The position numbers are program-made. A DNA stretch of 64,000 bases, taken from Escherichia coli O157:H7. GTDB lineage: Bacteria > Pseudomonadota > Gammaproteobacteria > Enterobacterales > Enterobacteriaceae. Numbering within the stretch: position 1 is the first letter of the stretch; each line of letters begins with the position of its first letter. Positions 44,401 through 47,400 of the stretch are shown here, piece after piece. The stretch lies in NCBI RefSeq assembly GCF_013167455.1, contig NZ_CP038328.1. One strand, 5' to 3'.

Positions 44401-47400
44401 TGCTGATGGAAAGCCAGATGCAGCAACTGATTGGTATTCTGGTGCGTGAAGCCGGAAAAACCTTCAGTAACGCCATTGCCGAAGTGCGTGAAGCGGTCGA
44501 TTTTCTCCACTACTACGCCGGACAGGTGCGGGATGATTTCGCTAACGAAACCCATCGTCCATTAGGGCCTGTGGTATGTATCAGCCCGTGGAACTTCCCG
44601 CTGGCGATTTTCACCGGGCAGATCGCTGCCGCACTGGCGGCAGGTAACAGCGTACTGGCAAAACCGGCAGAACAAACGCCACTGATTGCCGCGCAAGGGA
44701 TCGCCATTTTGCTGGAAGCGGGCGTACCGCCAGGCGTGGTGCAATTGCTGCCAGGTCGGGGTGAAACCGTGGGCGCGCAACTGACGGGTGATGATCGCGT
44801 ACGCGGGGTGATGTTTACCGGTTCAACCGAAGTCGCTACGTTACTGCAGCGCAATATCGCCAGCCGCCTCGACGCTCAGGGTCGCCCTATTCCGCTCATC
44901 GCTGAAACCGGCGGCATGAACGCGATGATTGTCGATTCTTCAGCACTGACCGAACAAGTCGTAATAGATGTGCTGGCCTCGGCGTTCGACAGTGCGGGTC
45001 AGCGTTGTTCGGCGCTGCGCGTGCTGTGCCTGCAAGATGAGATTGCCGACCACACGTTGAAAATGCTGCGCGGCGCAATGGCCGAATGCCGGATGGGTAA
45101 TCCGGGTCGCCTGACCACCGATATCGGTCCGGTGATTGATAGCGAAGCGAAAGCCAATATTGAGCGCCATATTCAGACCATGCGTAGCAAAGGCCGTCCG
45201 GTGTTCCAGGCGGTGCGGGAAAACAGCGAAGATGCCCGTGAATGGCAAAGCGGCACCTTTGTCGCCCCGACGCTGATCGAACTGGATGACTTTGCCGAAT
45301 TGCAAAAAGAGGTCTTTGGTCCGGTGCTGCATGTGGTGCGTTATAACCGTAATCAGCTGCCGGAGCTGATCGAGCAGATTAACGCTTCCGGCTATGGTCT
45401 GACGCTTGGCGTTCATACGCGTATTGATGAAACCATCGCCCAGGTCACTGGCTCAGCCCATGTTGGTAACCTGTATGTTAACCGTAATATGGTGGGCGCA
45501 GTGGTTGGGGTGCAGCCATTCGGCGGCGAAGGGTTGTCCGGTACCGGGCCGAAAGCAGGCGGTCCGCTCTATCTCTACCGTCTGCTGGCGAATCGCCCGG
45601 AAAGTGCGCTGGCGGTGACACTCGCGCGTCAGGATGCAGAGTATCCGGTCGATGCGCAGTTGAAAGCCGCATTGACTCAGCCGCTAAATGCACTGCGGGA
45701 ATGGGCAGCAAATCGTCCAGAATTGCAGGCGTTATGTACGCAATATGGCGAGCTGGCGCAGGCAGGAACACAACGATTGCTGCCAGGGCCGACGGGTGAG
45801 CGCAACACCTGGACGCTGCTGCCGCGTGAGCGCGTATTGTGTATCGCGGATGATGAACAGGATGCGCTGACTCAGCTCGCCGCCGTGCTGGCGGTGGGCA
45901 GCCAGGTGCTGTGGCCAGATGACGCGCTGCATCGTCAGTTAGTGAAGGCATTGCCATCGACTGTCAGCGAGCGTATTCAACTGGCGAAAGCGGAAAATAT
46001 TACCGCTCAACCGTTTGATGCGGTGATCTTCCACGGTGATTCGGATCAGCTTCGCGCATTGTGTGAAGCAGTTGCCGCGCGGGATGGCGCAATTGTTTCG
46101 GTGCAGGGTTTTGCCCGTGGCGAAAGCAATATCCTGCTGGAACGGCTGTATATCGAGCGTTCGCTGAGTGTGAATACCGCTGCCGCTGGCGGTAACGCCA
46201 GCTTAATGACGATCGGTTAAACAGGTAGCCGGAGGATGTTACACCCTCCTCCGGCATCATTAGCGTGGTCGAATCCCCTCAATAATAATCCGCTGCACGT
46301 TTTCAACCGTTTGATTGAAAAATACCTCATCGCGCAACGTTGCGCCTGTCACCGCCTCCACCTGAGGGGCGAAATCGGCGTAATGTTGAGTGGAAGCCCA
46401 AATCATAAAAATCAAATGCTGCGGATCAATCGGCGCGAGTTTGCCGCTTTTGACCCAACCGGCAATCAGCGCCGATTTCTCATCAATTAATGACTTCAAA
46501 TCGCCCGTCAGTTCATCCATTAACAGCGGCGCGCCTGCCAGCATCTCCATACAGAACAGGCGCGAAGCCTGCGGATAATCGCGTGAGACTTCCAGCTTCA
46601 GACGGATGTACTCTTTGATCGCCGCCAGCGGGGCGAAATCTTCACGAAACGCTTTTAACGGTGCCAGCCAGATATCGAGAATCTGCCGCAGCACGGCAAT
46701 ATACAGCGCCTCTTTTGACGGAAAGTAATACAGCAGATTGGTTTTTGAAACACCCGCCAACTCTGCAATTTGCTCCAGCCGTGTGCCGTGAAAACCGAAT
46801 TGTGAAAAAGTGTCCAGTGCTGCGCTAAGAATCGCTTTTTTCTTCGCGCTTACTGCGCGCGAACGTTTACCCGTTGTTTTCACTGCGCCTTGCGTCATGC
46901 GCTCTCCCCTCTTGTAGATTGGCAACAGGATAGCAAAACCCCCGCCCGGCCTCGACCTTCTGCACTCTCATCGCGCACAGATGCATGTTTTATGTGCAAC
47001 TGTTTTGACCGTTTAGTCCACTTTTTACCAGACATTTTAGATAACGCGATGTTAACACATTAATAACACTCCCTTTTTAAAAACTGGCATCCGCTTTGCA
47101 AACAAGCCAATACGCGGCTGAAAAGGATATGCAGAATGCAGCGCCCCGTCTGACTTTCACTTTACGAGACGAAGAGAGGTTGATGATGAAAATTGGCGTA
47201 TTCGTACCTATTGGCAACAACGGCTGGCTCATTTCGACCCACGCGCCGCAGTACATGCCGACCTTTGAACTGAATAAAGCCATCGTGCAAAAAGCGGAGC
47301 ACTACCATTTCGATTTCGCCCTGTCGATGATCAAACTGCGTGGCTTTGGCGGCAAAACTGAGTTCTGGGATCACAACCTTGAGTCGTTCACCTTGATGGC

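Follow-up and report, generated by a model that had tools for sequence, protein, structure and literature searches.

The divergent control region between rutR and rutA of Escherichia coli O157:H7 occupies positions 46899–47185 of the window (the whole stretch of DNA analysed, 64,000 nucleotides), and comparison of related loci indicates that translation of RutA most likely begins at the ATG at 47186, not at the TTG at 47096 or the ATG at 47129. An earlier note on this DNA had taken the region as a rutA control region with sigma-54 and RutR elements and had placed the rutA start at 47129: the former part stands, while the start is likely located 57 bases further downstream. We have high confidence in the overall model, in which the rutA promoter would be driven by phosphorylated NtrC (NtrC~P) and sigma-54, with a RutR operator in between and a start codon at 47186. 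Coordinates of the features are collected in Table 1.

The rutR–rutA switch of the pyrimidine breakdown (rut) genes is itself already known: it is well studied, and both motifs are published. The K-12 counterpart, rutAp in the rutR-rutABCDEFG intergenic region (b1012–b1013), is said to have been described by Loh in 2006 and by Shimada in 2007. The same K-12 region is also treated in other studies (Shimada, 2008; Bonocora, 2015; Nguyen Le Minh, 2015). The window matches an O157:H7 record at 100%, in which rutR and rutA are annotated. Compared with the K-12 locus, the sigma-54 17-mer, the RutR 16-mer and both NtrC-like sites are identical, whereas seven positions differ in the spacer 47021–47084. 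For comparison, 80 Enterobacterales rutA loci were used (79 for the count of in-frame stops), and rutR is divergent to rutA in 75 of the 80 as judged by tblastn.

Table 1. Features of the rutR–rutA region in window coordinates; centres are given relative to the predicted rutA transcription start.
Feature	Position	Strand	Description
rutR CDS	46260..46898	-	TetR-family repressor, 212 aa; annotated by PGAP in an O157:H7 record of 100% identity and also listed as an ORF
NtrC-like enhancer site 1 (candidate)	46961..46977		TGCACTCTCATCGCGCA; centre ~-142; 9/12 match to TGCACC-N5-GGTGCA
NtrC-like enhancer site 2 (candidate)	46982..46998		TGCATGTTTTATGTGCA; centre ~-121; 9/12 match
RutR operator (RutR box)	47005..47020		TTGACCGTTTAGTCCA; reverse complement of the published TGGACTAAACGGTCAA
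rutR sigma-70 promoter (tentative)	47034..47063	-	-35 TTAATG 47058-47063, 18-nt spacer, -10 TAAAAT 47034-47039; found by eye
IHF-like core (candidate)	47053..47065		TAACACATTAATA, equal to YAANNNNTTGATW with 1 mismatch; centre ~-52, between RutR box and sigma-54 promoter
Sigma-54 promoter of rutABCDEFG	47085..47100	+	TGGCATCCGCTTTGCA; -24 TGGCA, -12 TTGCA
rutA transcription start (predicted)	47109..47112 (~47111)	+	Bonocora rule
Conserved 5' leader element	47112..47149	+	arms ACGCGGC 47112-47118 and GCCCCGT 47143-47149
ATG of the 382-aa form	47129..47131	+	K-12 RefSeq start, most likely without function as such; falls within the conserved leader motif
Shine-Dalgarno GAGAGG	47174..47179	+	6 nt before ATG 47186 (-12..-7)
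rutA CDS, short form	47186..48277	+	pyrimidine monooxygenase, 363 aa; PGAP start

Sigma-54 promoter and RutR operator

In the promoter element TGGCATCCGCTTTGCA, the GG at 47086–47087 and the GC at 47098–47099 are separated by the helical-turn spacing within TGGCAC-N5-TTGCW. The 17-mer cTGGCATCCGCTTTGCA (47084–47100) is identical to the sigma-54 ChIP-seq site OS10 assigned to b1012 rutA (Bonocora, 2015), and the rutA promoter is also a gSELEX target of the reconstituted RpoN holoenzyme. TGGCA-N6-TTGC(A/T) is found upstream of rutA in all of the 80 Enterobacterales loci. The near-consensus −24/−12 element that had been read at 47085–47100 is therefore exact in its coordinates and corresponds to the published OS10 motif. 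According to the rule of Bonocora, transcription starts 19 bp 3′ of the motif centre, leaving 18 nt to the K-12 rutA start, from which we infer a start at about window position 47111; for sigma-54 promoters, the expected distance is about 12 nt from the GC. The literature searched contained no experimental mapping of the rutA transcription start, and the promoter is marked as “predicted” in EcoCyc and in Bonocora’s table.

The sequence at 47005–47020, formerly noted as resembling a RutR operator, is precisely the mapped and published one: TGGACTAAACGGTCAA was identified by ChIP-chip and EMSA, and is listed at −114.5 with an 11/14 match (Shimada, 2008). Relative to the predicted rutA start, its centre is at about −98.5; the distance to the rutR ATG is 114.5 bp. 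When aligned with the 16-bp semi-palindrome TTGACCAnnTGGTCAA, the box matches at 11 of 14 positions with the key A4 and T13 intact. A RutR-like box (up to four mismatches) stands at a fixed offset from the sigma-54 element in 78 of the 80 loci, this offset being −79 to −81 in Enterobacteriaceae and −88 to −90 in Erwiniaceae and Yersiniaceae. A 50-bp rutA-promoter fragment containing the site binds a RutR dimer with 2:1 stoichiometry and a KD of 44 nM in ITC, the KD being that of the fragment. The P1 box of carAB, TTGACCATTTGGTCCA (13/14), likewise has A4 and T13 and is of the same family of 16-bp semi-palindromes, and its affinity (28 nM) is similar to that of rutA; the rutA box, however, is the poorer match to the consensus and has a negative effect at its own locus, in contrast to the carP1 box, which exerts a positive effect from −184.5.

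Uracil sensitivity has been observed in two types of binding assay: RutR peaks in ChIP-chip are uracil-sensitive, and DNA binding in EMSA is weakened by uracil. Furthermore, a four-base operator-constitutive mutation results in loss of the uracil-sensitive autoregulation of rutR. Deletion of rutR did not raise the level of rutA mRNA in exponential phase, and hence direct repression of rutA by RutR is less firm than autoregulation of rutR.

Likeness to a degenerate consensus says little for any of these sites. The exact core TGGCA-N6-TTGCA is rarer, with two occurrences in the window against 0.31 expected; the degenerate sigma-54 consensus with two mismatches gives 9 matches against 13.7 expected, the RutR consensus with three mismatches 2 against 2.8, and the NtrC-like sequence with three mismatches 23 against 29, each of the two NtrC-like sites taken singly being at chance. 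Because consensus likeness alone is at chance in the sigma-54, RutR and NtrC scans, evidence was taken from conservation at fixed geometry. The degenerate searches, at or below chance, are what would favour regarding the sigma-54 and RutR motifs as accidental resemblances devoid of function. We consider this practically untenable, since exactly these sequences have been shown to be bound experimentally, their geometry is conserved in 80 and 78 of the 80 loci, respectively, and an operator mutant shows a phenotype. The reality of the two sites is confirmed by their context together with independent published data.

Candidate NtrC and IHF sites and the proposed mechanism

Promoters of the sigma-54 type stay inactive as long as no enhancer-binding protein has remodelled the closed complex. 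At the rut locus, conserved NtrC-like 17-mers are located upstream, an NtrC ChIP-seq peak has been published, and NtrC-dependent expression is cited. Among the listed rows that were examined, the rut operon peak carries the top value, 94.0 (Brown, 2014). The 80-bp interval given there for this peak covers the sigma-54 promoter and not the NtrC-like 17-mers, and thus the interval cannot localise the sites. In comparison with the 17-bp NtrC dyad TGCACCAnnnTGGTGCA, which as a rule occurs in tandem on one face of the helix, each rut site has three mismatches, and the two are arranged in tandem 21 bp apart, with site 2 lying 6 bp from the RutR box. At fixed offsets from the RutR box, site 1 is found with up to four mismatches in 82.5% of the 80 loci and site 2 in 70%, as against 0.34% at other offsets in either case, and both sites are invariant across seven E. 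coli lineages. From this conservation, we infer that NtrC may be assigned to exactly 46961–46977 and 46982–46998.

The candidate IHF core was judged by a WATCAANNNNTTR core plus an A/T tract between enhancer and promoter: the rut sequence has one mismatch and overlaps the tentative −35 of rutR. Allowing up to one mismatch, 52 of the 80 loci carry the core at −32 relative to the sigma-54 motif, while shuffled sequences gave a match anywhere in about 14 of 80. Its conservation may stem from the overlapping rutR −35. The rutR promoter itself is a low-confidence candidate, with which the RutR box would fall between about +8 and +23 of the rutR mRNA; its sole support is that the box is published as lying downstream of the rutR start. 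A scan of 46850–47250 for sigma-70 promoters and terminators gave nothing at threshold.

The layout resembles that of glnAp2-type promoters, where tandem NtrC sites at about −110 and −140 act through enhancer looping, and also glnHp2 with IHF: the rut region has a −24/−12 promoter, two candidate NtrC-like 17-mers centred near −121 and −142, and, between enhancer and promoter, a candidate IHF-like core. Unlike the glnAp2 type, it has a TetR-family operator inserted between enhancer and promoter, 6 bp from the proximal NtrC-like site, which is at the same time the operator through which a divergent, presumably sigma-70-dependent gene regulates itself.

Published experiments have established occupancy by sigma-54 and RutR, sensitivity to uracil, dependence on NtrC together with a ChIP signal of NtrC at the locus, and the effect of the operator mutation on rutR autoregulation. 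In the proposed mechanism, phosphorylated NtrC would bind the tandem sites and contact the promoter via DNA looping, possibly aided by IHF near −52. A RutR dimer occupies the operator unless carrying uracil. From this one position, between enhancer and promoter and presumably within the transcribed rutR leader, RutR represses rutR and is also placed to hinder NtrC assembly or looping at rutA. Two signals would thus be required for rut expression: limitation of nitrogen (NtrC~P) as well as pyrimidine, in the form of uracil that frees RutR. The message, with a leader of about 75 nt, would be translated from ATG 47186 behind the conserved GAGG of the Shine-Dalgarno sequence.

The start codon of rutA

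The TTG at 47096, the start in the ORF track, is not the start because it is part of the −12 element (47096–47098) and precedes the transcription start predicted at about 47111; in this point, the earlier note was right. It had also taken the promoter as favouring ATG 47129. Both 47129 and 47186 are, however, downstream of the predicted transcription start, and the promoter cannot choose between them; comparative evidence favours 47186. As a general point, an upstream start from the ORF track can be ruled out with the help of a promoter motif, but the motif cannot by itself select among downstream ones. With the start at 47186, the promoter lies about 86–101 bp upstream of the gene instead of the about 30 bp proposed before.

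ATG 47186 is present in all of the 80 loci, which all align from residue 1, and three-nucleotide periodicity begins there. Conservation across genera steps from 0.1–0.4 bits (about 0.2) to 2.0 bits exactly at this position, and the Shine-Dalgarno sequence is the sole conserved block in the preceding 45 nt (1.1–1.6 bits against about 0.2 in the flanks). Three signs of a genuine start, a Shine-Dalgarno sequence at 5–9 nt, a conserved start codon and codon periodicity setting in, are all found at 47186 and none at 47129. Annotation is divided: PGAP uses 47186 (363 aa) for the O157:H7 genome as well as for all further E. coli records with PGAP annotation that were inspected, whereas the K-12 RefSeq entry NP_415532.3, in the UniProt style, uses 47129 (382 aa). 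Crystal constructs are also of both kinds, 6SGG and 6SGL with 363 and 364 aa and 5WAN with the 382-aa form.

That RutA starts at ATG 47129, 18 nt after the transcription start, with the 19 additional residues as a genuine N-terminal extension, is improbable in our view. The frame is open from 47129 in the window and in most E. coli genomes, an AGGA is found just 5′ of this ATG, and the longer form is the K-12 RefSeq start and was crystallised; the open extension, the K-12 start and the 382-aa crystal together leave room for some initiation at 47129. However, only 1 nt separates the AGGA from this ATG, a spacing too short for a Shine-Dalgarno sequence to function, and coding-type conservation is absent upstream of 47186. 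Stops in frame are present inside the 57 nt 5′ of 47186 in 39 of 79 loci, among them an E. coli lineage of 15 genomes with TGA; only 8 of the 80 loci have a start codon in frame with rutA at the K-12 position. Within E. coli, the 57-nt extension shows five nonsynonymous and two synonymous changes as compared with 1:32 in the gene (Fisher p = 1.8e-4), that is, it evolves as non-coding DNA. The short form is, moreover, the one used by PGAP and in the 6SGG and 6SGL structures.

Slightly less probable still is that both starts are used, or that 47129 opens a short leader ORF that influences rutA translation, for example by coupling. For this, an ATG at the 47129 position with a conserved MQDA(A/T)PR reading is seen across Enterobacteriaceae, and in some of them the leader ORF ends with UGAUG at the rutA ATG; in loci L003, L004 and L022, an ORF of 19–20 codons stops at a TGATG overlapping the rutA start. 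Against it, the start codon is absent from this position in 27 loci, the leader ORFs terminate in each of the three frames and their distance to rutA varies, the reading frame of the conserved nucleotides changes from genus to genus, the AGGA-to-AUG spacing is 0–2 nt throughout, and the element is lost in 21 loci. A leader-peptide (uORF) reading was rejected over the 80 loci on account of inconsistent frame, length and start-codon presence.

With ATG 47186 as the start, the reference K-12 or UniProt-style RutA of 382 aa is probably 19 residues too long, and PGAP and later crystal structures already have 363 aa. The shorter protein would have to be considered when residues are numbered in structures, when expression constructs are designed and when the 75-nt leader is interpreted.

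A conserved element in the leader of rutA mRNA

The leader motif is the single part of this region that may lead to something new. Its two arms flank a GGA (47125–47127) and a mini-hairpin, UGCA-GAA-UGCA (47130–47140), in which the window has GAA and other lineages have GGA at 47134–47136. The alignment of 80 loci shows conservation of at least 90% for GCAGGA.GCA, in the form GCAGGA(U/A/C)GCA. The element is conserved across Enterobacteriaceae, Erwiniaceae and Serratia and is absent from 21 loci. The proposed pairs form in 82% of cells as against 8–45% when slid, with one GC-to-AU covarying pair, and RNAalifold retains only two of the pairs. A search of Rfam with the leader gave no family, with only noise at E = 9, and folding of single and multiple sequences was no better than that of shuffles (z-scores +0.3 to +1.8, on the worse side). 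A stable riboswitch-like structure was rejected on these grounds, namely no Rfam match, folding no better than shuffles, the two RNAalifold pairs and the single covarying pair.

The motif includes the CsrB repeat CAGGA(U/A/C)G in a weak hairpin closed by a short stem of GC/GC; the CsrA SELEX consensus RUACARGGAUGU served as the standard of comparison for the GGA hairpin. The second GGA is located about 10 nt upstream, and both are within about 30 nt of the predicted 5′ end, like the sites of flhDC. CsrA targets usually have at least two sites with GGA in a hairpin loop, one of them over the Shine-Dalgarno sequence or close to the 5′ end. Unlike in CsrA targets, no GGA lies over the rutA Shine-Dalgarno sequence in most loci, and the O157:H7 window has GAA in place of GGA. 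No report of CsrA binding to rutA mRNA was found in the literature, and a CLIP-seq supplement names rutR only. The resemblance to CsrA sites is thus a lead rather than a demonstrated membership. A so far undescribed post-transcriptional control of pyrimidine catabolism through 47112–47149, possibly by CsrA-type protection or exposure of the 5′ end as at flhDC, is a tentative and rather doubtful reading. Compared with K-12, the O157:H7 allele has G47135A, which turns the GGA of the motif into GAA and would correspond to D3N in the K-12 reading frame; this key GGA is destroyed by the substitution in the O157:H7 lineage (298 of 5,403 genomes).

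Sigma-54 promoter and RutR operator

The stretch 46926–47128 falls within the 287-bp intergenic region between rutR and rutA, as given by the PGAP annotation of the identical record. In a database comparison, 46850–47250 is a 100% match to E. coli O157:H7, and the region between the two genes is common to more than 5,400 complete E. coli genomes. The sigma-54 promoter and RutR operator that the earlier note read here are confirmed and were already known in detail.

The −24/−12 element lies exactly where it had been placed, at 47085–47100 (TGGCATCCGCTTTGCA), and is the published sigma-54 binding site: b1012 rutA is the gene assigned to ChIP-seq site OS10 (motif CTGGCATCCGCTTTGCA; Bonocora et al., 2015), and gSELEX with reconstituted RpoN holoenzyme recovers the same site (Shimada et al., 2021). 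Counting 19 bp downstream from the centre of the motif, Bonocora et al. (2015) predicted a transcription start that is 18 nt ahead of the K-12 start of rutA and corresponds to window position ~47111. Likewise, the operator-like 16-mer at 47005–47020 (TTGACCGTTTAGTCCA) matches, when reverse-complemented, the published RutR site TGGACTAAACGGTCAA exactly (score 11/14, position −114.5; Shimada et al., 2008), and measured from the rutR ATG (46898), the centre of the box (47012.5) is precisely at the listed −114.5. The box, published as being downstream of the rutR start, is centred at about −98.5 from the predicted rutA start. In published ITC with a 50-bp rutA-promoter fragment, the KD was 44 nM with one RutR dimer per DNA.

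Likeness to consensus alone is not above chance in the 64-kb window: the sigma-54 consensus with two mismatches gives 9 matches vs. 13.7 expected, and the RutR consensus with three mismatches 2 vs. 2.8; the exact core TGGCA-N6-TTGCA gives 2 vs. 0.31. Despite these chance-level scores, both motifs are real sites by published binding and conservation. When one genome per species was scanned, yielding 80 rutA loci of Enterobacteriaceae, Erwiniaceae, Yersiniaceae and relatives, TGGCA-N6-TTGC(A/T) was found upstream of rutA in all 80. A RutR-like box (A4 and T13) starts at −79 to −81 from the sigma-54 motif start in Enterobacteriaceae and at −88 to −90 in Erwiniaceae and Yersiniaceae, with at most four mismatches in 78 of the 80 loci. 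Yersinia, Serratia and some Erwiniaceae loci (L073–L075, L077, L078, L061, and L063) have a second RutR-like box 19–20 bp downstream of the first, at about −70 from the sigma-54 motif, while E. coli has one box only. The only other exact core in the window (18284–18299, minus strand, TGGCAAATCTGTTGCA) is antisense within a fimbrial-cluster gene (ORF 18021–19355), is absent from the sigma-54 ChIP-seq tables of the published main text, and is probably a chance match.

Upstream sites and proposed regulation

Coordinates of genes and sequence features around the rutR–rutA intergenic region
Feature	Position	Strand	Remarks
rutR	46260–46898	minus	PGAP annotation of identical record
NtrC-like 17-mer 1, TGCACTCTCATCGCGCA	46961–46977		44 bp upstream of RutR box start; centred at ~−142 from predicted rutA start
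NtrC-like 17-mer 2, TGCATGTTTTATGTGCA	46982–46998		23 bp upstream of RutR box start; centred at ~−121 from predicted rutA start
IHF-like core, TAACACATTAATA	47053–47065		between RutR box and sigma-54 promoter; same offset in 52/80 loci
Leader element	47112–47149		5′ end of predicted rutA transcript; contains 47129 ATG
Leader arm ACGCGGC	47112–47118		GC-rich; arms always with one internal mismatch
First GGA	47125–47127		within leader element
Mini-hairpin UGCA-GGA-UGCA	47130–47140		GAA in place of GGA in the window
Leader arm GCCCCGT	47143–47149		GC-rich; as for the first arm
rutA	47186–48277	plus	PGAP annotation of identical record

Taken singly, the two NtrC-like 17-mers are chance-level consensus matches; at their fixed offsets, matches with at most four mismatches occur in 82.5% (site 1) and 70% (site 2) of loci vs. 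0.34% of other offsets. An NtrC ChIP-seq peak has been reported at the rut operon (value 94.0, the highest among the rows listed; Brown et al., 2014), and as its 80-bp interval covers the sigma-54 promoter, the peak does not show where the enhancer sites lie. A comparison of seven E. coli lineages gave no variation in the NtrC-like sites, the RutR box or the −24/−12 core bases; the spacer 47021–47084 between RutR box and promoter is a hotspot of variation, in which 18 of the 64 sites segregate. The IHF-like core overlaps a possible rutR −35 on the opposite strand.

From this arrangement, a closed complex of sigma-54 holoenzyme most likely sits on the −24/−12 element and is activated through looping by NtrC~P bound to the tandem upstream sites, possibly assisted by IHF bending. 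Uracil-free RutR occupies its one operator between enhancer and promoter, with a gap of 6 bp to the nearer of the NtrC-like sites, the same operator also lying within the rutR leader; the conserved adjacency of the sites suggests that RutR may hinder NtrC assembly or looping. Autoregulation of rutR via the box has been shown, as a four-base operator-constitutive mutation of the box abolishes this uracil-sensitive control. Repression of rutA through the box is asserted in the literature and is less firmly established. In exponential phase, rutA mRNA is not increased when only rutR is deleted, as would be expected of a promoter with an absolute requirement for NtrC~P.

Start codon of rutA

Three starts have been considered: the ORF-track TTG at 47096, and the ATGs at 47129 (382 aa) and 47186 (363 aa). 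The earlier note held that the promoter favours 47129 over 47096. Rejection of 47096 stands, its TTG being that of the −12 element itself; the choice of 47129 does not follow, because both ATGs are downstream of the predicted transcription start. Position 47129, too, is most likely wrong. It is the K-12 RefSeq start (1072863..1074011), the AGGA that ends 1 nt ahead of it is too near to serve as a Shine-Dalgarno, and crystal structures exist of both forms (5WAN, 382 aa; 6SGG, 363 aa; 6SGL, 364 aa). PGAP places the start at 47186 in every other record inspected, and reference annotations thus conflict over 47129–47185 (L082, K-12, vs. L001, the PGAP-annotated locus).

In all 80 loci, MK(I/V)GVF begins at the 47186 ATG, with a GAGG block at −12 to −7, and per-column information rises from 0.1–0.4 to 2.0 bits exactly at this ATG, with third-position periodicity thereafter. 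The 57 nt upstream contain an in-frame stop in 39 of 79 loci. One of these is from a minor lineage of E. coli, comprising 15 complete genomes, in which CGA of the putative N-terminal extension is changed to TGA (L002:1480–1482, window 47165–47167), making a 382-aa RutA impossible there. Only 8 of the 80 loci have, at the K-12 position, a start codon that leads in frame into rutA; in 24 it opens ORFs of 5–20 codons in assorted frames, 27 lack a start codon there, and the motif is missing from 21. When seven E. coli sequences were compared, five nonsynonymous or nonsense vs. two synonymous changes fell in the extension, and one vs. 32 in the gene's first 360 nt (Fisher p = 1.8e-4). The conserved start is therefore most likely 47186; in E. 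coli, a small part of translation may begin at 47129. In three Enterobacteriaceae loci (L003, L004, and L022), the leader ATG opens a 19–20-codon ORF whose TGA shares bases with the rutA ATG (TGATG), as is typical of translationally coupled genes; elsewhere neither its frame nor its length is conserved.

Conserved leader element

In the 55 distinct leaders having the element, from three families, conservation of the core GCAGGA(U/A/C)GCA is 90% or higher. Evidence for RNA structure is weak. The proposed pairs form in 82% of alignment cells vs. 8–45% in slid controls, and one pair covaries (GC to AU) in 12 sequences, probably by a single event because all belong to the Escherichia/Enterobacter-type group. 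RNAalifold retained only two pairs of the leader alignment, folding energies were worse than those of shuffles, giving a stable fold no thermodynamic support, and Rfam had no match to the element.

The motif is identical to the repeat of CsrB, CAGGA(U/A/C)G, and similar to the CsrA SELEX consensus, the GGA being in the loop of a short hairpin, and two leader sites near the 5′ end are reminiscent of flhDC regulation. CsrA is not reported to bind rutA; in the supplement to a CsrA CLIP-seq study, only rutR has a peak, within its coding region (K-12 coordinates 1074528–1074704; Potts 2017), and the Csr system may therefore touch the rut regulon via rutR mRNA. The likeliest reading of the conserved leader is a CsrA-type site, although at low probability.

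The element is deleted in several lineages, namely E. hormaechei-type, Buttiauxella and Yersinia (L020, L021, L023, L024, L038–L040, L044, L045, L052, and L073–L075), where leaders are ~45 nt shorter and the sigma-54 motif is 56–70 nt from the ATG; two Buttiauxella loci (L035 and L037) have insertions instead. At 47135, the window has A where K-12 and nearly all other genera have the central G of this GGA core (GCAGAATGCA vs. GCAGGATGCA), hence GAA. Only 298 of 5,403 E. coli genomes match a 72-nt window stretch carrying G47135A at 99% identity or more, the matches listed being of O157 type.
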